A DNA stretch of 14,502 nucleotides from Armatimonadota bacterium (lineage in GTDB: Bacteria > Armatimonadota > Zipacnadia > Zipacnadales > UBA5352): positions 1 to 14,502 of the forward strand of contig JAYENL010000035.1 in the NCBI GenBank assembly GCA_034722055.1. The letters run 5' to 3'. The position numbers were made by a program, and so were the translations under genes. The notes beneath the pieces were generated by a model. The model was not told the origin of the DNA, did no database searches, and was given only the letters and a program-made list of their open reading frames with translations. The number at the start of each line of letters is the position of its first letter. The stretch's first letter is position 1. Shown one piece after another: positions 125 to 14,030 of the stretch.

Positions 125-172
125 GGCCCGGGCGCGGCGGAGCCGAGGGGACGTTCTGAAGAGGTGCCATGC

Positions 173-3100
173 ATGCGTGCGAAGCCACTGACGCTCATTG
201 TGCTTGCGCTGATCCTGGCGATGCCCGCATTCGCGCAGGGCCCGCCGCCGTGGGAGGTGCGGGCGTATCTGTCCACGTACACCGACGGCGCCGGGTCGGG
301 GACGGGGTCGTGGACGTGGAACATGACGGCGGTGCGCCACCGATACGTGTGCCCCTACTGCGGCTACAGCACCGACCACATCAGCGCGGCGGGGGATACC
401 TGCCCGAACCCCTTCGGCATAGCCAGCCATCCGGCGGACGTGGAACTGGTGCCCGCCTCGCCCAAGGACCGCATTCTGGACTATCTGGGGGTCACCGCTG
501 AGGACGTTAACGGGAACGCAGCCAACCCGCTGATCGGCCGGCCGTTCCACCCTGGCGGGGCGGACTGGGAGGACCTGGACTGGAACAACGGCCCTCCCGG
601 CACCGACATCCCGTGGGAGGTGCCGACGCTCGCCAACGTGGCCTCCTTCGTGACCGCGCGCATGGACAGCGAGACTGTGAGCGGGCTGTTCGATACCGGC
701 TACGGACTGCGCTTCCTGGTCATCGAGCCGGGCTCTGTGCGGGCCGAAGCCAGCTTCCGCTACGTCAGTGATGCCGAGGCTCCCACCCTCACCCCGACCT
801 TCTATCGCACTGTCGGGGGCGGCACAGTTGCGGCGGCGGACTATAAGATCCACGTTAATCCCTACCGGGTGTCTAACGGCGATGTGTGGTATATCCGGCA
901 TCTGCAGACCGCGGCCGGCACGGCCGAGGTGGAGGCGTACAGCAAGCTCTACGGTCTGGACTTCGACAGCGCGGGCGCGATCGACGCAGGGCAGTACGCG
1001 ACGGACGGTGGGTGTCGGATCATCACCGACAGCGGCGCACTGATGGTGGACGTGCCCGCGATCACGGGCGCCCTCGGCGACGCGGGCCGGATCATCAAGC
1101 TGGTCATCGACTCCAACACGCAGACGCTGCCCTCGCCGCTGGAGATGGACTATGACTTCTGGGACGGGGAGGGTATCTACACCGATCCCGACCAGGTGGA
1201 GCCGGTCATCCCCGCGGGCAGCATGGGCCCCGAGCTGTCCGACAGCTATGGCGCCAAGGGCTGCTACGTGCTGGCGGACCTGACCGTCGATCCCATCCTG
1301 TCCACGGCGAACCCGGCCAACACCACCGACTGGCTGGTGGTGGAGAAGAGCGGGGAGACCTTCAACACCGCGCAGATATGGCCCTATCGCGTGCCGCCGG
1401 AGGCGGCCGGGGTGGGGCGGATTATGCTGCAGTGGTCGCCGCTGACGGCCGCCGGCCAGCCCGTCGGGGTGTCGGCCGGCGGCACCACGGTATACTACCG
1501 GGAGGGCAGCGAGTGGCACTACATGGCGGATCTGAACGCCCCGGCGACGCAGCACGTGACCAACGGCGACGTCGCCGCGCACACCGCGATGGGAGGCAAC
1601 GCGGCGTTTGTCGACACGCGCTTCATGTGCTCCCGGCCGGACGTGGACCTGGATCCGGCAGCCGACTTCGACCCCCTGGATGCGCATGATGACGTGGTCG
1701 TCAATGACCGCTGGGTGGACCCGGCGGGCAACGTGCACGCATCGTTCGTACAGGACGACGAGCCAGCGACCGGGGGGCTGCCACGCCTGATTCTCGGCGA
1801 GCTGTTCCCGGGCACCAGCGATGACTGGGGCGGGGAGTACAACCCCGGCACGCGGACGCCGACGCGGCTGTTCTCCGTCGCCAACAGGACGCCAGTGACG
1901 ACGCTGGTCTGTCCGGTCGATGAGGGCGGGTGTGGAGCGCGGTTCGAAGAGGGGATGGAGTATCTCCCCGGTAACCCGCTGGACGCCGGCGACCTGTGTC
2001 CGGTGTGCATGCAGCATACGACAGGTGGCCCGGTGGGCGTCAGGCTGGAGGAGGCGCCCGGCGAGGCGGACCTGCATTACGACGCCCACGACGCCCCGGA
2101 GACGCGGCTGGGGACGTCCCGTCACTGGATGACGCCCGATGCCATCAAGTTCGGGCCCTCGGGCAGCCGGGTGCCGATGGGGGCGCCGGACTTCCGCCAG
2201 GATGTCCACGTGGAGATCCCGCCCTACCAGCCGCCATCCGTGCCGTCGCGGGACACGTTCTTCGACAACGACCTGCCGAACGACCAGCCCTACGAGGGGC
2301 TGATGCTGGCCTTCCATCAGACAGGCGACGAGGCGGACGAGATGGACGGGAACTTCGCGTGGGACTGGTACTACGAGGCACCGCAGACGGGGAGGAAGTT
2401 CGACGATCCCACGACCGTGCCCAATGACTCCCACGCCGACTGGACCTGTCCGGTGTGCGGCACGCGCGTGTCCAATGCCCTGATTGGGGACCTCGACGGC
2501 GACGGGGACGACGACTGCCCGTTCTGCCTGGCCGATCCGGAGAAGCCAGCCGCGGCCCCGTTCATTGGCTACGACACGCTGGTGGCCGAGGAGTACGACC
2601 CCTTCGGGCTGCGGGTGTCGGTGCTGCGGAAGGCGGCGCTGGCGGCGGATGAGCGGATCGTGGACCTGGGATGGGTGGCGCCGGGCGTGCCGCAGGATGC
2701 GCCTAACACCGTGAACGAGCCGGCCGAGAGGCAGCCGGGGGACGAGGCGTGGCCGACGGATGTGTCCACGCGGTCGGATGTGCCGGTGCGCAACGAGGGC
2801 AACATCGCCTCAGTGGCCCGGATGCGCTCGGGCTTTTTGTTCCGCACGGAGATCGACAGCGAGGTGCGCTCCTATCCGCGGTGGGCGCAGAGCGTGCCGT
2901 TGACGGTGGGGACGCTGTTCCGCTACCGCCCGGGCATCCCCGAGGATGTGGAGTTCGGGGCGGCCGCGTGGAACCTGTGGCGGCAGCAGGCGACGGGCGC
3001 GGCCGGCGAGCGAGCCACCTCGCGGCTGCAGGCGGGGGTCCGCTCGACGGCCGGGCCCTATGCGGGCACCATCAAGCCGGTTCCGATGGGCCAGCCGGCG

Positions 3101-5545
3101 GGCAACTACGCCAATGAAGTGCTGCTCTACATTGACCTCGATCAGGACGGGGCCCTGGACTTCTACGACGCCCTGGCGGGTGTGACGGATACGACGACGC
3201 AGGAGTTCGACCCGGACGTGGATGAGCCGTTTGAGCCGGTGGCCTCCTTCGCGACGCGAATGCGGGTGGTGGAATCGCGGCTGCCGCACAGCGACTTCTA
3301 CTCCAAGGACGTCGAACCCACGGTGCTCTACGATGCATCGCGGGGCAACCTGCAGGTGCTGTGGGCGGGGCAACGCATCTCTGCGACCGGCGCCGGCTCG
3401 GCCGCGGCGGCGGGCACGTCGGACGCCGACCGGCCGTCACCGGGCGATCCGTTCAACCTGATGTACGCGAACGCAGAGCTGCGTCTCTTTGGTCCTGATC
3501 CGGTGTACCGGGGCTGGCTGTGGAGCCCGGCCGGGGCGCTGCCGGATGAGGCCGATGCGCTGACCGCCAGCACAGGTGCGGAGACCAACGCCTCGCCGAC
3601 CGCCTATGTGGATGGGGCCAACAACCAGCGGTGGGCCATGTGGCATCGCTCCCTGGCGACCGATCAGGGCCTGAGCTCGCAGCTCCGCTTCGACGGCTCC
3701 GCGAGCGTGGACTGGGACGGCTCCACGGCCACGGAGTTCCTGTTCGGAACCGGAGGCGCGCACCGGGGCCTGACCGGCTTCGTGCGGGAGGGCGCGGCCA
3801 ACCGCCACTGGCTGTTCTGGCACGCGGGGCCGAAGGGCCGGGAGCATCTGCGCTATCGCTGGGAGTTCGACCCGACTTCCGGGACGATTCCCGGGGACGC
3901 GCTGCTGCATGTGAGCAACACCGCGGCAGGCGGGCCGTATGACTTCTTCGCAGTGGATGTGGCGGGGGAGACCTACCGCTACCGGAAGCCAGCGGAGAGT
4001 CCCTTTACCTACGTGAAGCAGCCGAGCGCCTTCGGCAGCGAGGTGGGCGACCCGGCGAACCCGGAGTTCCAGGCTGACGTGTTCTTCACCGGACACATCC
4101 GGGCGCTGGGCAACTCCGACATCTGCTGGACGCGCTTCAACTTCGGCCCCATCGGGGGCGCCGACTTCCCCTACAACGGGGTGGACAACAACTACGGCAA
4201 GGTGCCGTTCCCGCGGGTGGTCAACGCGGACGGGATGCGGATGCCGGAGATCTACGATGGCGAGGGCGACCTGCGCGGGTACGCGGGCGAGCAGCTGCAG
4301 CCCAGCCCGCGGCGGGAGTCCTTCCAGAGTCGCGACATCGACTGGCTGGTGACGAAGGAGGTGCCGGACCCGGCGGCGCCGGACGAGCCGTTCAACTTCG
4401 AGACCAAGCCGGACTGGACGGCGTGGCTGGCGGAGAACTTCGGGATGGAGGAGTACGACGATCCGAGGTTCTACGTGGGCGTGGTGACCGAGGCCGGCGG
4501 GACGCGGACGGAGGACCTCTATGCCGTGAGTTGGGCCAATGGGAGCTACGATCGCGGCAGCGGGATCTACACCGTGACGCCGGTGCTGACCGGAATCTCA
4601 TCCGGTGGCATCTTCGAGCTGCCGCTGAATCCGGGCCATCCGGACAATAACCACCTGGGCGAGCTGATCGACCCGGCGGTGCGGAGAGAGGCCGAGGACC
4701 AGGGAGCCTTCGGCGGGCCGGGCGACTACAGCAGCTTCATGTGGCCATCGGTGCGCCTGAGGATCAGCCCGGCGTCGGGGACGCTGAAGTGGTCGTCGCC
4801 GCTGTTCAACCCCGACAACCCTCAAGACCGGCTGGCGGTGTTCAACTCCGGGAACACGCCGGGCATCGTGGATGTCGTGATGTATGCCGACTACACGCCC
4901 TTCGTGCGGCGGGTGACGACCGACGAGGCGAACGACGACAGCCCCTCGGCCTTCTACGACCTGGCCGGGAGCAGCCGGCTGACGGTCTTCTGGCGGCGCA
5001 GCTACGGGGGGACGGACACGCCGCACTTCGGCCGCCCGTCCTTCATGCACCGCTCGTTCACCCGCGCTCTGCAGGTGGCCAGGCCGCCGATCACGGCCGG
5101 GGACATCTCGGAGGTGTGGGACGTGACGGCTGGCGAGGAGCCGCCGTGGGTGCTCAGCTCCGAGGAGAACGGGATCATCACGATCGAGCCGGACGCAGCC
5201 ACCACACCGGCGCGTGTAGGACACCGCATCCGGGTGAGCTACAACGGCCAGGTGGAGCAGCACCGGGTGATCGGCTGGAGCACCGAGACGCCGGTGCCGG
5301 TGAACGCGGTGATCGCGGAAGGCCCGCTGCGCGTAGTGCCCGAGATCTATACGGTGCCGGGCACCAACTTCCAGACGGTTCGCTACTGGCTGCTGTGGTC
5401 GAGCGCGCGGAGCGTCTTCGACCTGCGCCAGCCGGACCAGGACGGCCAACAGGTGCAGCAGGCCACGGACGTCTACCTGGCGGTGGTGGCGCCGGAGTAC
5501 GGGAGTCTGATTGCGGACCTGCAGGTGCCACGGGTTGGTCCGTAA
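173..5545 (+). CDS. Very large secreted hypothetical protein (~1790 aa) with CxxC knuckles, DxDxDG loops, Ig-like and beta-propeller-like repeats; candidate pilus-associated/PilY1-like adhesin
   Basis: 5.4-kb ORF with strong GC3 bias. The ORF track starts at GTG 164, but ATG 173 lies 7 nt after GAGGT (161-165) and gives a Sec-type signal MRAKPLTLIVLALILAMPAFA|Q. Motifs CPYC, CPVC (x2), CPFC, DLDGDGDDD, DLDQDGALD. The CDS is secure; the function is inferred. Confidence 0.85.
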   Translation: MRAKPLTLIVLALILAMPAFAQGPPPWEVRAYLSTYTDGAGSGTGSWTWNMTAVRHRYVCPYCGYSTDHISAAGDTCPNPFGIASHPADVELVPASPKDRILDYLGVTAEDVNGNAANPLIGRPFHPGGADWEDLDWNNGPPGTDIPWEVPTLANVASFVTARMDSETVSGLFDTGYGLRFLVIEPGSVRAEASFRYVSDAEAPTLTPTFYRTVGGGTVAAADYKIHVNPYRVSNGDVWYIRHLQTAAGTAEVEAYSKLYGLDFDSAGAIDAGQYATDGGCRIITDSGALMVDVPAITGALGDAGRIIKLVIDSNTQTLPSPLEMDYDFWDGEGIYTDPDQVEPVIPAGSMGPELSDSYGAKGCYVLADLTVDPILSTANPANTTDWLVVEKSGETFNTAQIWPYRVPPEAAGVGRIMLQWSPLTAAGQPVGVSAGGTTVYYREGSEWHYMADLNAPATQHVTNGDVAAHTAMGGNAAFVDTRFMCSRPDVDLDPAADFDPLDAHDDVVVNDRWVDPAGNVHASFVQDDEPATGGLPRLILGELFPGTSDDWGGEYNPGTRTPTRLFSVANRTPVTTLVCPVDEGGCGARFEEGMEYLPGNPLDAGDLCPVCMQHTTGGPVGVRLEEAPGEADLHYDAHDAPETRLGTSRHWMTPDAIKFGPSGSRVPMGAPDFRQDVHVEIPPYQPPSVPSRDTFFDNDLPNDQPYEGLMLAFHQTGDEADEMDGNFAWDWYYEAPQTGRKFDDPTTVPNDSHADWTCPVCGTRVSNALIGDLDGDGDDDCPFCLADPEKPAAAPFIGYDTLVAEEYDPFGLRVSVLRKAALAADERIVDLGWVAPGVPQDAPNTVNEPAERQPGDEAWPTDVSTRSDVPVRNEGNIASVARMRSGFLFRTEIDSEVRSYPRWAQSVPLTVGTLFRYRPGIPEDVEFGAAAWNLWRQQATGAAGERATSRLQAGVRSTAGPYAGTIKPVPMGQPAGNYANEVLLYIDLDQDGALDFYDALAGVTDTTTQEFDPDVDEPFEPVASFATRMRVVESRLPHSDFYSKDVEPTVLYDASRGNLQVLWAGQRISATGAGSAAAAGTSDADRPSPGDPFNLMYANAELRLFGPDPVYRGWLWSPAGALPDEADALTASTGAETNASPTAYVDGANNQRWAMWHRSLATDQGLSSQLRFDGSASVDWDGSTATEFLFGTGGAHRGLTGFVREGAANRHWLFWHAGPKGREHLRYRWEFDPTSGTIPGDALLHVSNTAAGGPYDFFAVDVAGETYRYRKPAESPFTYVKQPSAFGSEVGDPANPEFQADVFFTGHIRALGNSDICWTRFNFGPIGGADFPYNGVDNNYGKVPFPRVVNADGMRMPEIYDGEGDLRGYAGEQLQPSPRRESFQSRDIDWLVTKEVPDPAAPDEPFNFETKPDWTAWLAENFGMEEYDDPRFYVGVVTEAGGTRTEDLYAVSWANGSYDRGSGIYTVTPVLTGISSGGIFELPLNPGHPDNNHLGELIDPAVRREAEDQGAFGGPGDYSSFMWPSVRLRISPASGTLKWSSPLFNPDNPQDRLAVFNSGNTPGIVDVVMYADYTPFVRRVTTDEANDDSPSAFYDLAGSSRLTVFWRRSYGGTDTPHFGRPSFMHRSFTRALQVARPPITAGDISEVWDVTAGEEPPWVLSSEENGIITIEPDAATTPARVGHRIRVSYNGQVEQHRVIGWSTETPVPVNAVIAEGPLRVVPEIYTVPGTNFQTVRYWLLWSSARSVFDLRQPDQDGQQVQQATDVYLAVVAPEYGSLIADLQVPRVGP

Positions 5546-5852: not shown

Positions 5853-7184
5853 ATGGCTAAGGGCGCCACACACGTCCTGGGCCTGGATATCGGAACAGCA
5901 TTCATCAAGGCAGCGGAGATCCAACTGCGAGGCGATGAGTACCACGTGGTGGGGCGGCCGGCGGTGATCCCCACTCCCGAGAATGCTGTACGCGGGGGGG
6001 TTGTGGTGGATGCCCCCGCGGTCGCCGAGGCGCTTGAGGAGATACGCGTCCGCTACGGGGCCGGCGTGAAGAGGGCTGTCGCCTCCGTGGGCGGCGATGC
6101 CTCGGTGGTGGTACGCATCACCGAGGTCCCCAGCATGTCGGACCGGGAGCTGGACGAGGCCATTCAGTGGGAGCTGGATGAGCAGACGCCCTTCCCCGTT
6201 GACGAGGTCATCTACGACTACTCCCCCATCGAGCGCCCCGACGCCGACCCTGAAGCCACGGAGATGGAAGTGCTGCTGGCGGTGGCTCAGGAGGACCTGG
6301 TTGACGCGCACGTCGATGCCATGCAGGGGGCGGGAATGGTACCCGTGGCGATTGACGTGGAGCCGCTGGCGATCGGCCGGGCACTGGTGGATGCCGCAGG
6401 CGATGCGTTCGCCGATCAGACTGTGGTCAACGTGCACATCGGCGCGACTACGACCCTCATTCTCGTATTCCGCCACAAGCTGCTGAGCTTCGTTCGCGTG
6501 ATCCCGTCGGCGGGCGAGAATCTGACGCAGGTGCTGGCGCAGAATCTGATGGTCGATCAGGATCAGGCGGAGATGATCAAGCTGGAGCTGGGGCGCGTGT
6601 ACGCCGGGAGGTTCGTGCCCGAGGAGGAGGAGGACGAGTTCGCGGGCGCGGGAATGTTCGAGGAGGAGGGGGAAGAGGAGCTGGAGTCGGACTCGGTCTT
6701 TGAGCTGTCGAGCACCGACGAGGGCTCGGCAACGATCGAGCCGGACGAGGGAGCCACGCGGCTGGACATCGAGGAGGACTTGGAGGGCCCGCCCGAGGAG
6801 GAGGCGCCGCCACCGCCGGAGGAGCCGGAGGCGACCGGGGAACAGGCCTCCGACCTGGTTGAGGCCCGGGAGATCGTGGCTGACGTCCTGACCGAGCCGG
6901 CGTTGGACGTGGCGACCGAGGTGCGGAAGTCGCTGGACTTCTACCGGCGCCGGCACCGGAACGAGCCGGTTGACCGCATCCTGGTGACCGGGGGCAGCGC
7001 CAAGCTGGATGGATTGACCGACATGATCCGCGAGGAGACCGGGGTGGAGGCCACTGAGGTCGGGAACCCCTTCCAGTACTTGACGATTGATGAGCCTGGC
7101 ATACCCGAGCAGTACCTGCGCGACATAGCCCCGTCGATGGTCATCGCAGTGGGTCTGGCGCTGCGGGACATGGTCCCGGCGTGA
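5853..7184 (+). CDS. pilM: Type IV pilus assembly protein PilM (actin/FtsA-like) with acidic insertion
   Basis: VLGLDIGTAFIK phosphate-1 motif, PFPVDEVIYDY, VLLAVA, AIDVEPLAIGRAL, EVRKSLDFY, ILVTGGSAKLDGL, NPF, IAVGLALR. First gene of an M-N-O-P-Q array with a strong RBS. Confidence 0.95.
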   Translation: MAKGATHVLGLDIGTAFIKAAEIQLRGDEYHVVGRPAVIPTPENAVRGGVVVDAPAVAEALEEIRVRYGAGVKRAVASVGGDASVVVRITEVPSMSDRELDEAIQWELDEQTPFPVDEVIYDYSPIERPDADPEATEMEVLLAVAQEDLVDAHVDAMQGAGMVPVAIDVEPLAIGRALVDAAGDAFADQTVVNVHIGATTTLILVFRHKLLSFVRVIPSAGENLTQVLAQNLMVDQDQAEMIKLELGRVYAGRFVPEEEEDEFAGAGMFEEEGEEELESDSVFELSSTDEGSATIEPDEGATRLDIEEDLEGPPEEEAPPPPEEPEATGEQASDLVEAREIVADVLTEPALDVATEVRKSLDFYRRRHRNEPVDRILVTGGSAKLDGLTDMIREETGVEATEVGNPFQYLTIDEPGIPEQYLRDIAPSMVIAVGLALRDMVPA

Positions 7185-7229: not shown

Positions 7230-8192
7230 TTGCTGAGAATCGACCTTCTGCCAAGGCACTTCGCGGTTGCGCGTACGAACAAGATCCTCATCGGTCTGTT
7301 CGTGGCGCTGCTGATCGCAGTAGGGGTCGTGGGAGCCGGTGCGGTGCTGCTCGTGCACAGGCAGATTGGGCAGACGCAGGCGGATATCGACGACATCAAG
7401 CCCAAGGCTGAGGAGACAAAGGAGATCCAGGCTGAGACGCAGAGTCTGCAGTTGCAACTGGAGCCGATCCAGAACCGGGTGGACTTCGTTGCGGAGGCCG
7501 ACGAGTCCGGGGCGCAGTTCTGGGACCGCTTCCACGCTATCAACGAATACATCTATGACAAGGCCCGCGTGACACGGTTCAGCATCACAATCCCGTCCAA
7601 CGTCAACTTCGACGTCATTGTGGGTGACACCACGGAGGCGGCGCGGTTCCTACTGAACCTTATCCGTTGTCCGCATCTGACCAGCATCAGCATCTCCGGC
7701 CTTCCCGCCGGCATGTCGATCGAGGGAGCCGGTGGGGCCGGACGCGGCTTCGCGCCTATGGGTGCGGGGGCGATGCCCGGCGAGGGCATGATGGGGATGG
7801 AAGAGCCGGGGATGGCCCCCGAGCCCGGCATGATGGAAGGGCCGGCCATGGGCGGCCCCGCGATGGGTGGTCCCGCGATGGGCGGGCCTCCGATGGGTGG
7901 AGGTGGCCGTGGCGGGAGGACCGCCACTGGCGAGATCGCCCTGAGCGTCTCCGCGCAGTTGACCGTACCCGTGAGCGAGCCGACGCCTCCCAGCGGCGCT
8001 GCCGCCGGAGCCGCCGGCCGGGGCGCAGGCATGGGCATGGGGATGGGCCCGGAGATGGGCATGGGGCCTGGGATGGGCATGGGCGAAGGCGGGCCGCCGG
8101 GAGCCGGCATGCCCGGTGAAGCCATGCCGCCCGGCGAAGGCATGGGCCCGCCCGGCGAAGAGATGGCCCCGCCCGGCGAGGCAGGGCCTTAG
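7230..8192 (+). CDS. pilN: Type IV pilus assembly protein PilN-like with Met/Gly/Pro-rich insert and tail
   Basis: TTG start after GAGGGA. N-terminal RIDLLP matches the PilN INLLP PilM-binding motif, followed by one TM helix, a coiled coil and a periplasmic alpha/beta domain. Directly follows pilM. Confidence 0.85.
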   Translation: MLRIDLLPRHFAVARTNKILIGLFVALLIAVGVVGAGAVLLVHRQIGQTQADIDDIKPKAEETKEIQAETQSLQLQLEPIQNRVDFVAEADESGAQFWDRFHAINEYIYDKARVTRFSITIPSNVNFDVIVGDTTEAARFLLNLIRCPHLTSISISGLPAGMSIEGAGGAGRGFAPMGAGAMPGEGMMGMEEPGMAPEPGMMEGPAMGGPAMGGPAMGGPPMGGGGRGGRTATGEIALSVSAQLTVPVSEPTPPSGAAAGAAGRGAGMGMGMGPEMGMGPGMGMGEGGPPGAGMPGEAMPPGEGMGPPGEEMAPPGEAGP

Positions 8193-8262
8193 GGCCTCAG
8201 TAGCGCGGTCGGCGAGGAGATTGGCCACAACGCGCACAGCATAGGACGGCAGGAGTGGAGCG

Positions 8263-9111
8263 ATGGGTCGGATACCTCCCATTGCAGTCATAGTTACCGG
8301 CCTCGTGGTGGTTATCGGCGCAGCGGCGGCCATGCTCTTCTTCCTGTACAAGCCCGCGCACGCGACGCTGGGTGAACTCAGGGACGAGTACCGCGAGGCG
8401 GAGAGGGTTGCCGATCAGCTCACGTCCGCGAAGGCCGAGCGTGACAAAGTGGCGGCCCAGTGGGAGGAGTACAAGGCGGAGCTGGACGAGCTCCGCGAGA
8501 AGCGGAGCATTCCCATCTCGTTCGGTCACCCCGCGGGCGCCATGGTGGCACTGTGGTATGAGTATCGCGAGGACCTCCCCCCGCTGATCGAGGACTGGGT
8601 GGAGTCCACCGGGTGCACGATAGAGAGCGGTCAGTCATTCCCCGCACCCGCCATGACCCCGCCCTCGCTGCCGCCCAGCGGCTTTCTGCAGGTCCCGCAG
8701 CAGTCTATCACCCTCACCGTCAGCGGGAGCCTCAGCGCCATCGAGCGCCTCTACCGGTCGCTGGAGCGGTTCCCCCGGGTCGTAACGGTCAGCCAGCTCG
8801 TGCTGGAGGCGGCGGATGAGACGGGGAACGTGCTGCGGGCGCAGGTGCCGATGAAGTTCTATCTGCTGGTTGAGGCTCCCGAGAGCATGCTTGGGGGCGC
8901 TGGCGCAGCCGCCGGGGCGGCCGGCGCAGGGATGGGCATGGGTCCAGAGGGTATGGGTCCAGGCATGGGTATGGGTCCCGAAGGCATGCCGCCGGGCGAG
9001 ATGGGGCCTGGCGGGATGGGTCCCGAAGGGATGCCCGGTGAGGGGATGCCGCCCGGAGGTGGCCCGCCAGGAGAGGTTGGTGCCGGCGGCGCGGGGCCGG
9101 AAGCGCCCTGA
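8263..9111 (+). CDS. pilO: Type IV pilus assembly protein PilO-like with Met/Gly/Pro-rich tail
   Basis: N-terminal TM ending FFLYKP, coiled coil, and PilO-like ITLTVSGSLSAIERLYRSLERFPRVVTVSQLVL. Follows pilN; GGAG elements upstream of the ATG. Confidence 0.85.
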   Translation: MGRIPPIAVIVTGLVVVIGAAAAMLFFLYKPAHATLGELRDEYREAERVADQLTSAKAERDKVAAQWEEYKAELDELREKRSIPISFGHPAGAMVALWYEYREDLPPLIEDWVESTGCTIESGQSFPAPAMTPPSLPPSGFLQVPQQSITLTVSGSLSAIERLYRSLERFPRVVTVSQLVLEAADETGNVLRAQVPMKFYLLVEAPESMLGGAGAAAGAAGAGMGMGPEGMGPGMGMGPEGMPPGEMGPGGMGPEGMPGEGMPPGGGPPGEVGAGGAGPEAP

Positions 9112-9149
9112 GAGAAGTTGGCCCGATCCCTGTTGCGGATCGAGGCATC

Positions 9150-9158
9150 TGGTATAAT
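9150..9158 (+). promoter_or_regulatory. Putative internal extended -10 promoter (TGnTATAAT)
   Basis: TGGTATAAT, a perfect extended -10 consensus, in the gap between the pilO stop (9111) and the probable GTG start at 9199. No well-spaced -35. Confidence 0.5.
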
Positions 9159-9198
9159 GGATAGCGAGACCACTGCCACAGCCGGAAAAGGATCAACC

Positions 9199-10074
9199 GT
9201 GATCGGAGAGCAGAAGGCGAAGGTGCTGTTCGCGGGCGGCGTGGCGTTGTTTCTCACGGGCCTGGTTGTTCTGATGCTGGTGGTCGTGCCAGCGGCACAG
9301 CGTACGCAGGTGGCCATGGCACAGGAGCCGCCGGAGGGGGTGCCGCCCGGTGAGCCGGGGATGCCGGGTGGCCCTGGAGGCCCGGAGGGAATGGCTGGCG
9401 AGCCGGGGATGCCGCCTGGCGGGCCGGGAATGCCGGGCGGTCCCGGCGGCATGGAGGGGATGCCCGGCGAGGGGATGGGCATGGGGATGGGGGCCGGCAC
9501 GGGCAGGGAGCAGCCGGCGGCGCCGACGGTGCCGCCGGAGGTCGGGCCACCCCTGGAGGCAAGCCGACCCAACCCCTTTGCGCCGCGGGCCGCGGTGGGG
9601 GTGGAAGAGGCTGAGGTGATGGCCGGCACGACCTACGGGCCGGACTGGAGCCAACTGCCTATTGCCGAACGAGTGGCCTTCGTGCGACCGGACATTCCGC
9701 CGGTGCGCACCCCGCCGGCGCCGTCGATCCCTCGCGCCCCCGAGGAGGCCATCCGGATCACGAGCATTCTGTGGGATGCGTCCGGTCAGGCTCAGGCGGC
9801 GTATGAGGATCCGGAGGGCGAGACCGGGGTCCTCAAGCCCGGGGACAGGATTCAGGGCATGACGGTGACGGAGATCACGCGGAAGGGCGTACGGCTGGAG
9901 AATGCGCAAACGGGTGAGGTCCAGGAGCTGGAGCTGAGGCCGCGGGCGAAGAAGAAGGAAGAGCCGCGGCGGCAGCAGAGACCGAGGCGAGAGCGGCGTG
10001 AGGGTGGTGCCCGCAGCGGGGGCGCCCGCAGGCGTCCGCCGGGCCAGTTCCCGGCCGCTCCGCCAGCTCCATAG
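9199..10074 (+). CDS. PilP-like / GspC-HR-like protein, TM-anchored, no lipobox
   Basis: GTG 9199 preceded by AAAGGA, in frame with the ORF-track start 9118. One TM helix, Met/Gly/Pro linker, RPNPF (cf. PilP RDPF), and a beta-domain RITSILWDASGQAQAAYEDPEGETGVLKPGDRIQGMTVTEITRKGVRL. Occupies the pilP position. Confidence 0.7.
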   Translation: MIGEQKAKVLFAGGVALFLTGLVVLMLVVVPAAQRTQVAMAQEPPEGVPPGEPGMPGGPGGPEGMAGEPGMPPGGPGMPGGPGGMEGMPGEGMGMGMGAGTGREQPAAPTVPPEVGPPLEASRPNPFAPRAAVGVEEAEVMAGTTYGPDWSQLPIAERVAFVRPDIPPVRTPPAPSIPRAPEEAIRITSILWDASGQAQAAYEDPEGETGVLKPGDRIQGMTVTEITRKGVRLENAQTGEVQELELRPRAKKKEEPRRQQRPRRERREGGARSGGARRRPPGQFPAAPPAP

Positions 10075-10131
10075 TCGGATAGCTTCGAAGCAGTCATACC
10101 AGGCGCGGGGCAGCGGCTGGAGGTAGGCAGA

Positions 10132-10950
10132 ATGTTGATGAAGAGAGCTGTATGGGCGGCGATCGTCGCCATCATGGTGGCGGCGCTGATGGCGGCGCCG
10201 GCGATGGCACAGGAGGAGCAGCCCCGGATCACCGTTGACTTCAACGGGGAGACGCTCAACCAGGTGCTGCAGATGTTCCGCCGCGCGTATGATCTGGAAT
10301 ACACGCTGGGCGAGGACGTGGACCCGGAGACCCAGATCTACACCTATCTGGTGGATGTACCTCTGCAGCAGGCTCTGACGTCTATCCTGGAGCCGAACGG
10401 TCTGCAGGCGATTGAGCAGAATGGGCGCTACGTCATCCGCCAGCGCAAGGAGCCCGAGGCGCGGGAGGCAGAGGAGGGGGAGGTGGTGCCTCGCGCAGCG
10501 ACTGAGGGCCGAACGCCTCCGCCACGGCCGACCCGGGAGACACAGTCCTACGTCCCCGGCGCCCAGGGCGATGGTGGCGAGGACGAGGAAGAGGAAGAGC
10601 GCGACGAGGTCCTGGAGATCATCTGGACGAAGCATCTGGGCGCTGACATGGCCTCCCTGATCTTCGGCGGCCAGGTGATTGAGGCCGGCGGCTATTACGG
10701 GGGCGGCGGTGGCGGCGGCGGATACGGCGGCCGTGGCGGCTACGGTGGCCGCGGTGGATACGGCGGCGGCTACGGCGGCCGCGGCGGGTATGGCGGCTAC
10801 GGCGGCCGCGGCGGGTATGGCGGCCGCGGCGGCCGCGGCGGCCGCGGCGGCTACGGCGGGAGCAGCTTCGGGCGCAGCGGCGGCTACGGCGGGAGCAGCT
10901 TCGGGCGTAGCGGCAGCTACGGCGGGAGCAGCTTGGGCCGCAACTACTGA
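10132..10950 (+). CDS. Secreted STN/secretin-N-terminal-like protein with Gly/Arg/Tyr (RGG/YGG) C-terminal tail
   Basis: RBS GGAGGT, signal peptide ending PAMA|Q, STN-like domain (ITVDFNGETLNQVLQMF...DVPLQQALTSIL...NGRYVI), acidic linker, N-domain-like beta-alpha, then a long Gly-rich repeat tail. Confidence 0.8.
   Translation: MLMKRAVWAAIVAIMVAALMAAPAMAQEEQPRITVDFNGETLNQVLQMFRRAYDLEYTLGEDVDPETQIYTYLVDVPLQQALTSILEPNGLQAIEQNGRYVIRQRKEPEAREAEEGEVVPRAATEGRTPPPRPTRETQSYVPGAQGDGGEDEEEEERDEVLEIIWTKHLGADMASLIFGGQVIEAGGYYGGGGGGGGYGGRGGYGGRGGYGGGYGGRGGYGGYGGRGGYGGRGGRGGRGGYGGSSFGRSGGYGGSSFGRSGSYGGSSLGRNY
10765..10944 (+). repeat. In-frame tandem repeats encoding the GGY/RGG/GSSFGRS tail
   Basis: Two identical 27-bp units GGCGGCTACGGCGGCCGCGGCGGGTAT (10765-10818), three GGCGGCCGC (10819-10845), three near-identical 33-bp units (10846-10944, GGYGGSSFGRS-like). 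Confidence 0.9.
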
Positions 10951-10959
10951 CGTGCCTCC

Positions 10960-10994
10960 GGCGGCTCACAGGGCGGGTAGCGTGTGAGCCCGTC
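10960..10994 (+). other. Intergenic stem-loop between the STN-like gene and the secretin gene
   Basis: GGCTCACA (10963-10970) is the reverse complement of TGTGAGCC (10983-10990); the stem can extend with a bulge. No U-tract. Confidence 0.5.
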
Positions 10995-11060
10995 AGGTTC
11001 CATGCGCACCGATGGGGGAGAAGGCGTTGTCGGTCACGACATGCTAGGGAGGGCCCAAAG

Positions 11061-12740
11061 GTGACGCTCCGAAATCGGCGGATGAAGCGCCTGACCGTAG
11101 CGTGCATCGCATTCACGATCATACTCGGGATCGGTGCAGTCGCAGCAGTGACTGCTGAGGAGGCCGCGGGGCAGGAGCAGCGGCTGATCAACATCGATGT
11201 GCGCGACATGGAGATCAGCGACGTCCTGCGAATGCTCGGCAAGGCGGCCAACGTCAACATTATCGTCGGTCATGGGGTCGCCGGCGAGATAGAGACGCTG
11301 ACACTGCACGACGTCTCGGTGGAGAGGGCGCTGCGGCTGATCACCGAGTCCGAAGGCTACCACTGGCGGCAGGACGACAACGTCTACGTCGTCAGCGCGG
11401 AGCCACCAGCGGTCGAAGAGGAGCAAGTGGAGCCGGCGACGGAGGTCGAGCCGCAGGTGGCGACCGCCAATCGACAGGCTCCCGAGGATGAGACTGTTAC
11501 TCCGACGGCGATCGTTCCCCCACCGCCGGAGGAGGACTACGCGACTCAGCCGCCGATGCCGTCGGAGCAGCCCAAGATCATTACCGAGCTCATGGAGCTG
11601 CGGTACGCCACAGCCAGCGAGGTGGCCGCGCTGTTCGGAGGCGCGCCGGCCCCGAGCAGCACGCTGCTGCGGTCACGCGGAGCCGGTGTCTACCCGTCCG
11701 GGGGATCGTACAGCAGTCTGGGGCGATTCGAGACGTACACCGGCGGCAGCCGTCTCGGGCCGCACGGTTTGGCGCAGTTCGGTGAGGACGTGGGCGGCGC
11801 GGGCGGCAGGGGGGTTACGGGCGGCGGCCTTGGCGGTGGATTGACCGGAACCGGAGCCCGGGCTACCACGACAGGTGCGGGCGGTCGCGGGGTGGGCGCC
11901 GGCGGGACGATCACCCTCCCGGGCGAGATGGAACCCCCCGTGGCGATCATGAGCCATAACGCGCTGCTGGTGCGTGGGACCCGCGAGGAGCTCGACCAGT
12001 TCCGCGAGATGCTGGCCCTGCTGGATATGCCGCAGAAGCAGGTGGAGATCTCCACGAAGTGGATCGACGTGTCCACCAAGGCGTCCAAGGCCCTGGGTAT
12101 CGACTGGGCCGTGACGAACGGGGCGCTGGAGATCTTCAACCTGGGCTTTGCCCCAGGCGAGGCCGCGAACAACGGCGTGCGCTACGGCCGGGGCCGATGG
12201 TGGGCGGAGCTGGCGGTGCTGCAGAACAACAGCCAGGCGACGGTCATCAACGAGCCGCGCGTGACCTGCATGAACGGGATGCCGGGGATGATCGCCTTTG
12301 AGACGGAGATCCCCTACTTCGCCGCGACGATCAGCTACAATCAGTTCGGTCAGCGGACCGTGGACTTCACCTCTGAGTTCGTGGACGTCGCGAACGAGCT
12401 GTGGGTCGTGCCGCAGATCAACCCCGACGACAGCATCAAGATGCAGCTCTCGCCACAGCTTCAGGACCAGGTCGGCACCGTGGAGGGTCCGAACGGCGAG
12501 CGAATCCCGATCGTGACGACTCAGTACGTGGAGACGATGGTGCGGGTAAAGGATGGCGAGACGATCGTGCTGGGTGGCGTCATCCGCAAGGACGAGAGCA
12601 TCAACCTCCGCAGCACCCCGCTGCTGTCGGAGATACCAATCATTGGCAAGCTCTTCCAGGCGCGGCGGACGGAGATCAATGACACGGAGCTGCTGATCTT
12701 CGTGACGCCGAAGATCGTGCGGGATCAGGCCACGACGTAA
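11061..12740 (+). CDS. pilQ: Outer-membrane secretin (PilQ/GspD family)
   Basis: RBS GGGAGGG and GTG start, signal peptide, STN/N0 domain, N3-like domain (ELRYATASEV...NALLVRGTREELDQFREMLALLDMPQKQVEI), secretin domain with VKDGETIVLGG, PLLSEIPIIGKLF, ELLIFVTPKIV. The pilQ name rests on synteny with pilMNO. Confidence 0.92.
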   Translation: MTLRNRRMKRLTVACIAFTIILGIGAVAAVTAEEAAGQEQRLINIDVRDMEISDVLRMLGKAANVNIIVGHGVAGEIETLTLHDVSVERALRLITESEGYHWRQDDNVYVVSAEPPAVEEEQVEPATEVEPQVATANRQAPEDETVTPTAIVPPPPEEDYATQPPMPSEQPKIITELMELRYATASEVAALFGGAPAPSSTLLRSRGAGVYPSGGSYSSLGRFETYTGGSRLGPHGLAQFGEDVGGAGGRGVTGGGLGGGLTGTGARATTTGAGGRGVGAGGTITLPGEMEPPVAIMSHNALLVRGTREELDQFREMLALLDMPQKQVEISTKWIDVSTKASKALGIDWAVTNGALEIFNLGFAPGEAANNGVRYGRGRWWAELAVLQNNSQATVINEPRVTCMNGMPGMIAFETEIPYFAATISYNQFGQRTVDFTSEFVDVANELWVVPQINPDDSIKMQLSPQLQDQVGTVEGPNGERIPIVTTQYVETMVRVKDGETIVLGGVIRKDESINLRSTPLLSEIPIIGKLFQARRTEINDTELLIFVTPKIVRDQATT

Positions 12741-12781
12741 GGCTTCGCGCGCGTTCGGGCACCACATATGCGGACGTATCC

Positions 12782-12815
12782 CTGGCAACGGCACAGATGA
12801 TGTGCCGTTTGTCAG
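12782..12815 (+). terminator. Stem-loop between pilQ and aroC (possible weak terminator or processing stem)
   Basis: AACGGCACA (12787-12795) / TGTGCCGTT (12801-12809) with a 5-nt loop, extended by CTGGC/GTCAG past one bulged T. Only a short T run follows. Confidence 0.4.
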
Positions 12816-12830
12816 TAAGGGGCATTCGGT

Positions 12831-14030
12831 GTGCAGTCCATCGAGCTCATCACAGCGGGCGAGTCGCACGGCCCTCAGGTCACGGCGATCCTGACAGGAA
12901 TCCCTGCGGGCCTGGAGGTCTGTGCCGGGGAGATCGACCGCGACCTGGCGCGGCGCCAGGTGGGCTACGGGCGCGGCGGGCGGATGACGATAGAGCGCGA
13001 CCGAGTGCGCATCCCCGGCGGGATCCGACACGGGCGGACGCTGGGCTCGCCGATCTGCCTGGTCGTGGAGAATCGGGACTGGGAGAACTGGCGTGCTGAG
13101 ATGGGGGCCGAGGCGCCGCCGGAGGGCTGGCGGAGTGAGCGCGAGGTAACGGTCCCGCGCCCCGGCCACGCGGATCTGGCCGGTGCTGCCAAGTTCGGGC
13201 ATGCGGACATGCGCAATGTCCTTGAGCGCGCGAGTGCCCGGGAGACGGCCGCTCGGGTCGCCGCCGGCGCCGTCTGCCGGAAGCTGATCGGGGAGCTGGG
13301 CGTGCACGTTCGGTCCAGGGTAATCGCCATCGGTGGCGTGGAAGAAGAGCACTTCGACGGATCGGAGGAGTCGTGGCGGTCGGTGGAGGAGTCGGATGTG
13401 CGCTGCGCCGACCCCGAGCTGGCTGCCCAGATGCGTGCTGAGATCGATGGGGCGAAGCAGCGCGGGGACAGCCTGGGCGGGATGGTGGAGGTGGTCGCCG
13501 ACGGACTGCCGCCCGGGCTGGGGTCGCACGTGCAGTGGCAGTGGCGGCTGGACTCGCGCATCGGCGGCGCGATGCTGAGTATACCCGGCATCAAGGCCGT
13601 AGAGATCGGTGCGGGCTGGTCGGCGGCGGCGGTGCCCGGCTCTGAGGTGCATGATCCCATCGTCCGGGCCGAGGGGGATGTTGCCTGGCCGTTCGCCCGC
13701 ACGTCCAACAATGCCGGCGGGATCGAGGGAGGGATGACCAACGGCGAGCCGGTCGTGGTCCGGCTGGCAATGAAGCCCATTCCGACGCTGACAACGCCAC
13801 TGGCATCCGTGGATGTGAGAAGCGGGGAGGCGGTGCAGGCTCACGCCGAGCGGTCCGACGTGTGTGCGGTGCCGGCCGCGGGCGTCGTGGCGGAGGGGGT
13901 GCTGGCATTGGTGCTGGCCGACGCGGCGCGAGAGAAGTTCGGGGGCGACTGTGTGGCGGACATGTGCGCGGCTCACGAGCGGTATCTGGGCCGGCTGGGG
14001 CTACCGTGGCGGGGAGATGAGGAGGCGTGA
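12831..14030 (+). CDS. aroC: Chorismate synthase
   Basis: TAGESHGP, RRQVGYGRGGRM, PRPGHADL, ERASARETAARVAAG, NNAGGIEGGMTNG, MKPIPTL, ERSDVCAVPAAGVVAE signature motifs. Confidence 0.98.
   Translation: MQSIELITAGESHGPQVTAILTGIPAGLEVCAGEIDRDLARRQVGYGRGGRMTIERDRVRIPGGIRHGRTLGSPICLVVENRDWENWRAEMGAEAPPEGWRSEREVTVPRPGHADLAGAAKFGHADMRNVLERASARETAARVAAGAVCRKLIGELGVHVRSRVIAIGGVEEEHFDGSEESWRSVEESDVRCADPELAAQMRAEIDGAKQRGDSLGGMVEVVADGLPPGLGSHVQWQWRLDSRIGGAMLSIPGIKAVEIGAGWSAAAVPGSEVHDPIVRAEGDVAWPFARTSNNAGGIEGGMTNGEPVVVRLAMKPIPTLTTPLASVDVRSGEAVQAHAERSDVCAVPAAGVVAEGVLALVLADAAREKFGGDCVADMCAAHERYLGRLGLPWRGDEEA

Follow-up and report, generated by a model that had tools for sequence, protein, structure and literature searches.

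A barrel-less paralogue of the secretin N-terminus encoded in the pilMNOPQ cluster of Armatimonadota

Pilotins and TsaP are accessory proteins required for the assembly or anchoring of secretins, and a pilotin-binding tail behind the barrel is a feature of secretins. To our knowledge, the secretin accessory proteins known (pilotins, TsaP, and the Slk plugs) are all unrelated to secretin. SlkA and SlkB, the plugs of Pseudomonas aeruginosa, are periplasmic accessory proteins of the T4P secretin with mainly gammaproteobacterial homologues, and the authors expect unrelated plugs in lineages devoid of Slk (PMC13392014). PilP and GspC-HR bind the N0 domain of the secretin via its β1 strand and α1 helix (PMC3441751, PMC3169554). 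Here, we analysed a window of 14,502 nucleotides from an Armatimonadota genome (the whole stretch of contig JAYENL010000035.1, assembly GCA_034722055.1, read on the forward strand), in which a small gene, X, directly precedes a secretin gene.

The PilQ/HofQ secretins of type IVa and competence pili (TIGR02515, PF00263; PDB 6ve2, 6w6m, 4ar0) are the described family to which X aligns, from N0 into the opening strand and helix of the N domain behind it, and as in PilQ/HofQ loci it is surrounded by pilM, pilO, a gene resembling pilP, a secretin gene and aroC/aroK; unlike PilQ/HofQ, X holds half an N domain, lacks the barrel and has a gene to itself, next to a secretin that is intact. When compared with the PilP/GspC-HR pairing, X duplicates the N0 side and not the PilP side, with a PilP/GspC-like gene directly upstream. 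In contrast to pilotins, X is homologous to secretin itself, and a loose lipobox-like pattern occurs in 2 of 90 orthologues; in contrast to TsaP it has no LysM hit, and it lacks the plug and β-barrel receptor domains of TonB-dependent transducers (both Pfam). To SlkA/SlkB it is likened by predicted role, yet it is built from the secretin's own domains; by this analogy we infer a putative plug function. X represents a sixth pilMNOPQ gene, made of the secretin's front end, broken mid-domain and kept in most families of the phylum.

Such a gene is apparently undescribed so far. We found no description of it in the open-access literature as covered here, mostly by title and opening of the abstract, and no NCBIfam model names it, database labels being hypothetical or STN domain-containing. 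In the portions available, the Fimbriimonas genome paper lists PilB, C, D, Q, M, and T without the word "secretin" (PMC4072686), and a survey of TFF systems names Armatimonadetes once, for T2SS (PMC6668835).

Gene X within a pilMNOPQ locus

The gene order in the window, all on the plus strand, is a 1793-aa gene, pilM, pilN-like, pilO, pilP/gspC-like, X, secretin, aroC and aroK. The features are as follows.

5853..7184, plus strand: PilM (PF11104 and TIGR01175, over cut-off)
7230..8192, plus strand: PilN-like gene (position and conservation; without Pfam hit)
8263..9111, plus strand: PilO (Pfam PF04350, over cut-off)
9118..10074, plus strand (start may be 9157): PilP/GspC-like gene (GspC match E 1.6e-6, weak and below cut-off; position conserved)
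10119..10124, plus strand: SD-like GGAGGT before X (sequence)
10132..10950, plus strand: gene X, barrel-less secretin paralogue, 272 aa (ORF, Pfam, BLASTP, profiles, orthologues)
10132..10209, plus strand: X signal peptide, Sec/SPI-type, ending A-M-A before Gln27 (pattern reading)
10222..10446, plus strand: N0/STN domain of X (Pfam PF07660; AF2; PilQ N0 as best PDB sequence hits)
10447..10602, plus strand: Pro/Glu/Arg-rich extended linker of X (without secondary structure in the AF2 model)
10603..10686, plus strand: half N domain of X, β1-α1-(F/L)GG and a short hydrophobic segment (profiles, gapless motif)
10687..10947, plus strand: Gly/Tyr/Arg/Ser low-complexity tail of X, 58% Gly
11047..11053, plus strand: SD-like GGGAGGG before the secretin (sequence)
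11061..12740, plus strand: secretin, PilQ/HofQ-like, 559 aa (Pfam; TIGR02515 213 bits, below its cut-off of 284)
11574..11648, plus strand: first half (β1-α1) of the secretin N domain, counterpart of the X half-domain (profiles, model)
11649..11906, plus strand: long, largely disordered loop splitting the secretin N domain (model, alignment)
11775-11777, plus strand: recurring Gln (Gln239) at the start of the Gly-rich part of the loop
11907..12032, plus strand: second half (β2-β3-α2) of the secretin N domain, missing from X (model; Pfam Secretin_N profile positions 37-69)

The locus has the pilMNOPQ order, M and O being recognised over cut-off, N by position and P via the weak GspC match, with a secretin over the Pfam cut-off and under that of TIGR02515. 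The PilP/GspC-like protein comprises a membrane segment, a Gly/Pro/Met linker and an HR-like domain. Gly-rich low-complexity stretches are present also in PilN, PilO and the PilP-like protein. Neither a promoter-like site nor a plus-strand terminator-like site was found in 9900-12900.

A previous sequence-only reading had proposed two reading frames here, each with its own ribosome binding site, an STN domain in both products and no barrel or remainder of the N domain in the smaller one; all of this was borne out. The ORFs of 272 and 559 aa each follow an SD-like motif, and Pfam finds STN in X (E 7.8e-8) and in the secretin (E 4.5e-6), with Secretin_N and Secretin in the long gene only. Of the domains by which secretins are recognised, X has N0/STN but not a complete PF03958 N domain (β1-α1 alone), and the PF00263 barrel is absent from it and from all X ORFs in the loci examined (Pfam/HMM): X is not a secretin. 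Given half an N domain and no barrel, it is unable to form a pore, and without the barrel an outer-membrane multimer of X is not expected. Rather, X is a secreted-type protein, composed of N0, a half N domain and a disordered tail, and tied to one secretin type. A hydrophobic signal stretch is seen in 88 of 90 orthologues, of which 70 match the pattern [AVGSC]x[AG]Q when all 90 are counted; their linker has a median length of 46 aa, and the tail a median of 72 aa with 55% Gly (n=81). In the AlphaFold2 monomer of X the N0 domain is confident (block means of 96-97 across most of it), and the half-domain is unpaired, merely a low-confidence helix being predicted there.

The secretin consists of a signal peptide, N0, one N domain and the barrel, with the C-terminus right behind the barrel. 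Its model, for which V. cholerae PilQ is the top Foldseek match, contains N0, a complete N domain (β1, α1, a short bridge, the disordered loop, β2, β3, α2) and the barrel. The loop spans 75-182 aa (median 114) in 75 secretins.

Distribution in Armatimonadota

Named X homologues belong to Armatimonadota, save two short partial records with other labels and one "bacterium". With the X of the window as query, matches were found in 16 of 17 other genomes of the family. Among 20 order-level loci picked by X, 19 have the gene directly behind a pilP-like gene, followed by the secretin in 15 and by the contig end in 4, and one copy is free-standing; a further 20 loci picked in the same way, mostly from other classes, gave 16 in the cluster, 3 free-standing and 1 unrelated STN protein. 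To avoid selection by X, pilM was searched in 80 genomes, including 20 that an earlier search had left unmatched; 79 had pilM, and 60 of these loci were fetched for family spread and contig room, with the best hit for each genome (the second hit for G146). Four end before the X position and three lie in a second, paralogous cluster, leaving 53 informative loci, 3 of them on contigs that stop short of the secretin. Between the pilP-like and secretin positions, 51 of the 53 have a barrel-less N0 gene, 50 as identified by HMM and one with a weak N0 (E 3e-6); the other two hold divergent forms, one (L065) without detectable N0 and one (L069) of 952 aa. The 18 fetched genomes missed by the earlier search yielded 15 with the gene, 2 cut and 1 second-type. 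When all loci are counted the arrangement occurs in 36 of the 47 family codes of the phylum, although locus counts include kin, which are not independent, and sampling is within the phylum. The same gene order was recovered in at least one named MAG locus among the matches listed (genome contig scan). The conserved synteny of pilP, an STN gene with a Gly tail and pilQ, which the sequence-only reading had named as a check, does hold across the phylum, and X is a real additional component, nearly phylum-wide, of a type IVa-like pilus cluster.

The second-type cluster provides a control. Of 20 second-best pilM loci, 18 have a secretin, nearly all with extra N domains and none preceded by a barrel-less N0 gene, one has no secretin within 11 kb, and one is a first-type cluster with X; together with the three loci above, second-type paralogous pilMNOPQ clusters lack X in 21 of 21 cases. 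Second-type secretins mostly have extra N domains, and their loops appear shorter by eye.

Copies far from pil genes were also found, including one in the window's own genome (G000:C198, 48% identical; others are L016, L038, L041, L044 and L052), so the family can do without a pil neighbourhood, a point against the docking role proposed below. In two genomes of one family (L046/L149, L166) an extra copy sits just behind the secretin and ends exactly after β3. The L065 orthologue, having lost its detectable N0, keeps the half-domain motif (read by eye). Two candidates were rejected: L047, an STN protein with a different C-terminus, as an X; and L044 as an X beside barrel-only secretins, those secretins having their own N0 and N domains. 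The phage collection gave no match. At the level of features, the top matches were phage clusters at 0.90-0.93, which are leads only.

The half-domain and its proposed role

X and the secretin of the window share 26% identity over 202 aa (BLASTP, E 1e-7). Profiles of the two families, built from 85 X and 75 secretin sequences, align with an hhalign probability of 99.8% (columns 5-146 versus 5-145), a stretch that starts in N0 and closes right behind the GG. Among solved structures, PilQ N0 with the first strand-helix of the following domain ranks best (E 1e-22). The sequence-only reading had aligned two 23-residue segments without gaps (10603-10671 and 11574-11642), both ending in FGG where a Gly-rich stretch was said to begin. 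Coordinates and register stand; taken alone the pair is weak (5/23 identical, BLOSUM 25, equalled by 22 of 2000 secretin shuffles), and in the secretin the Gly-rich stretch does not begin at FGG. There, some 45 polar residues follow and the sequence turns Gly-rich only after Gln239, whereas in X a short hydrophobic segment precedes the Gly tail; the segment after GG is hydrophobic in 65% of X against 31% of secretin. All 92 secretins carry the gapless strand-helix motif, and so do 83 of 92 X, compared with 1 of 184 shuffled regions; the nine X without it mostly look like small-insertion variants (by eye). Hydrophobic positions of the half-domain are kept alike in both proteins, and in the secretin model this pattern is buried by β2-β3-α2. 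The loop splits the secretin N domain at the end of β1-α1; hence X ends where the secretin domain is interrupted.

Within the loop, a Gln fills one alignment column in 67 of 75 rows and sits 2-3 residues ahead of the Gly rise in 33 of 75 secretins; 40 of 75 contain Q[FY].?G, where local shuffles give 16 plus or minus 3.4. An unbiased motif search of the loop did not recover this Gln motif, which rests on post-hoc tests because the pattern was picked after viewing the data and unbiased searches missed it. The recurring Gln may mark a point of cleavage, of modification or of contact.

We propose, at a probability of about one half, that X is a dedicated periplasmic accessory subunit which docks onto the secretin via its half-domain; in broader terms, X is probably an unrecognised add-on subunit of the pilus outer-membrane pore. 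X would serve the first-type pilMNOPQ machine (type IVa/competence-like) of Armatimonadota and would be exported by Sec to the periplasm. There its β1-α1, which does not fold alone in the model, would be completed by β2-β3-α2 of the secretin, swapping with, or packing beside, the secretin's own β1-α1 hung on the loop of ~110 residues. A half-domain with a kept buried face needs its missing half, and in the cluster only the secretin supplies one, from which we infer docking. The domain complementation suggested earlier is favoured, indirectly, by the kept hydrophobic core pattern, the unpaired half in the model and the loop-split secretin N domain. Yet the secretin N domain is already complete with its own β1-α1 in the monomer model, so X must displace an intramolecular partner. 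Docking would tether an extra N0 domain to the periplasmic ring and, as PilP/GspC of other systems contact N0 at its opening strand and helix, would provide a further site of this kind, albeit on an N0 with conserved residues of its own.

Gly-rich secretin loops would face the channel, and FG-repeat barriers may offer a likeness for disordered Gly-rich tails. The weakest step of the mechanism concerns the X tail, which would be placed beside the Gly-rich loop of the secretin, where it would most likely act as a soft gasket in the vestibule of the channel; as PilN, PilO and the PilP-like protein have Gly-rich stretches too, a plug role may not be what the tail is specific to.

The proposed docking fits the architecture and position of X, its half-domain pattern, L065, the copies ending after β3, the tree and dN/dS values given below, and the likeness of X to the secretin of its own locus. 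As to the latter, half-domain identity is 0.253 to the own-locus secretin and 0.200 to those of other loci (z 4.5, 38 loci); for N0 the effect is weaker (0.223 versus 0.204, z 3.1). Such own-locus likeness fits co-adaptation and may also reflect shared lineage composition, since N0 shows it too. Covariation between the X half-domain and the second half of the secretin domain gave no clear contact pairs at an effective depth of 57; in register, the covariation maps of X and of the corresponding secretin half correlate at 0.38 (-0.15 to 0.08 when shifted), a result that kinship or column make-up can cause. Should X enter the ring by half-domain completion, this would show that secretin rings can contain more than one kind of subunit and can be remodelled in trans. 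X is also a concrete candidate for the lineage-specific plugs proposed in PMC13392014. The docking idea is testable, a cultured member with X being on record: Capsulimonas corticalis (CCAX7_33040, WP_119322451.1, annotated hypothetical).

A bolder version, which we consider doubtful, makes the secretin a two-gene pore of exchangeable domains: the N domain would open at the loop, perhaps cut or modified at the Gln, and half-domains would slot in, installing interchangeable N0 sites and disordered tails rich in Gly/Phe/Tyr/Met as a soft selective barrier. The half-domain sources would be X and free-standing paralogues with differing tails; some of the free-standing copies (L147, L151, L152) do carry different low-complexity tails.

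Alternatively, X could be a free adaptor or extra ring, its half-domains pairing with each other and its N0 bridging the PilP-like protein and the N0 ring, so as to lengthen a short secretin. X accompanies the short first-type secretin and is absent beside second-type ones, mostly endowed with extra N domains; its post-GG segment is more often hydrophobic, its N0 has its own set of conserved surface residues, distinct from those of secretin N0, and secretin N domains can self-assemble without a barrel, as reported in one study (PMC5646246). Nevertheless, an adaptor ring is at odds with L065, which lacks a detectable N0, and with a half-domain that keeps the very pattern buried by β2-β3-α2 in the secretin; we regard it as rather unlikely.

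A transient role for X, as a chaperone or decoy that the mature pore lacks, seems similarly improbable. X would cap the N domain during export against early multimerisation, as a pilotin stand-in, or titrate PilP-like/secretin partners to tune pilus number. The secretin ends at the barrel without an obvious pilotin-binding tail, paralogues located elsewhere could act in trans, and a nanobody that binds N0 is reported to block a T2SS from the periplasmic side (PMC5646246); yet the kept Gly-rich tail is left unexplained, and it would be odd for nearly all genomes to encode a pure inhibitor in line with the target.

The STN fold of X leads to a further alternative. STN domains of TonB-dependent transducers contact anti-sigma factors, and X shows weak FecR_C and transducer matches. 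A signalling role is nonetheless very improbable: transducers match at E 0.01 or weaker against 1e-22 for PilQ N0 with the opening of the domain behind it, the scanned ORFs of the window include neither a sigma nor an anti-sigma gene, and the half N domain would be unaccounted for.

Descent of X

In 87 of 89 cases the nearest neighbour of an X N0 comes from a second X, and X N0 is about as close to its own secretin (median identity 21%) as to other secretins (20%). On the N0 tree the X and secretin labels change 3 times, against 60.6 when shuffled, with weak deep support; a tree constrained to a single X clade (38 loci) fits better than the one from the unconstrained search, and the AU test does not reject it (p-AU 0.835); this is no proof of the clade. 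N0 identity tracks barrel identity with Spearman coefficients of 0.51 for X and 0.52 for secretin N0 (76 loci) and a similar rate of decay. Of 20 sequences, the five same-family pairs with the lowest dN and dS under 1 have dN/dS of 0.07, 0.13, 0.15, 0.18 and 0.20, indicating purifying selection; distant pairs range over 0.3-1.1 with dS probably saturated, and pooled medians (0.38-0.58) were set aside because they include such saturated, distant pairs. Overall, one old partial duplication of the secretin gene followed by vertical descent is the simplest account.

The separate N0 lineages and the close-pair dN/dS show X to be no duplicate in decay and no artefact of assembly, and the previous claim that this is not a simple split gene holds. 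Despite the direct tandem placement and common layout, decay of a duplicate, read-through of a split gene into the secretin and misassembly are all scarcely credible in the face of phylum-wide conservation, low dN/dS, a separate lineage, a hydrophobic signal stretch of the secretin's own (86 of 90), no fixed frame from the X stop to the secretin N0 (33/30/28 across three frames, 91 loci), and contigs from four of four runs that cover the X stop (10948-10950) and the intergenic gap with zero differences, all four runs being from one study and two of them possibly the source of this DNA. The number of Gly repeats (~10795-10878) is less certain, since only short pieces cover that stretch. Homologues running on into a barrel, which would have pointed to truncation, are absent from the X clade, and none of 960 candidates is a longer, fused relative, the latter being weak evidence. 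One X orthologue carries a C-terminal Peptidase_S74 chaperone domain.

Glutamine motif of the secretin loop and variants of X

Within the long loop that splits the N domain of the secretin, a Gln recurs where the Gly-rich half begins, falling in a single alignment column in 67 of the 75 secretins compared (window 11775-11777). In one family, the linker of X, the barrel-less secretin paralogue, carries an N-x-Q motif that resembles this recurring Gln motif.

X-like genes are variable in both position and extent. A free-standing X paralogue, distant from the pil genes, is found in the window's own genome (G000:C198:67981-68775, 48% identical) and at L016, a locus from a related genome, its neighbours being small secreted proteins with Gly/Tyr/Arg tails. 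At further loci from related genomes a second X-like gene lies immediately 3' of the secretin (L046:1248-2270 (L149) and L166:1273-2166); here beta2-beta3, part of the second half of the N domain missing from X, is present, and the protein ends before alpha2. In one X orthologue (L077:4615-5841) the Gly tail leads into a chaperone domain of the endosialidase type, Peptidase_S74, matched at E 1.4e-12. At L069:5087-7945 the position of X is taken by a 952-aa protein with a helical region and long GYNQT and Asn/Gly repeats.

Other secretin-like and STN proteins

Compact secretin genes form a tandem trio both in the window's own genome (G000:C178, 27643-31602) and in a related one (L044:8616-13001), each of them carrying N0 and a short N domain. 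Family f24 has proteins (L148, L155, L159, L161, and L165) in which the region after N0 and an N domain gives no match to the secretin barrel model; these are possibly secretin-like and very divergent. Long proteins in which an STN-like repeat occurs 3-8 times in tandem were also numerous among the profile matches (e.g. P0066, P0071, and P0081).

Other genes of the cluster and its flank

In many loci the immediate upstream side of pilM is occupied by relatives of a large gene of the window:

164-5545: 1793-aa gene; hydrophobic stretch at the N-terminus and several CxxC motifs

For this gene, neither Pfam nor NCBIfam gave a family above cut-off. In the window's order, the PilP-like protein displays an A-Q motif a few residues past its membrane segment, resembling a signal-peptidase site (window 9118-9330, L003, L008, L021, L022, L024, L027, L028, L030, L035, L037, and L060); the motif was not seen in most other lineages compared. 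Long Gly/Met/Pro repeats are common to PilN, PilO, and the PilP-like protein (window 7230-10074), and the entire periplasmic part of the machine is therefore rich in low-complexity tails.
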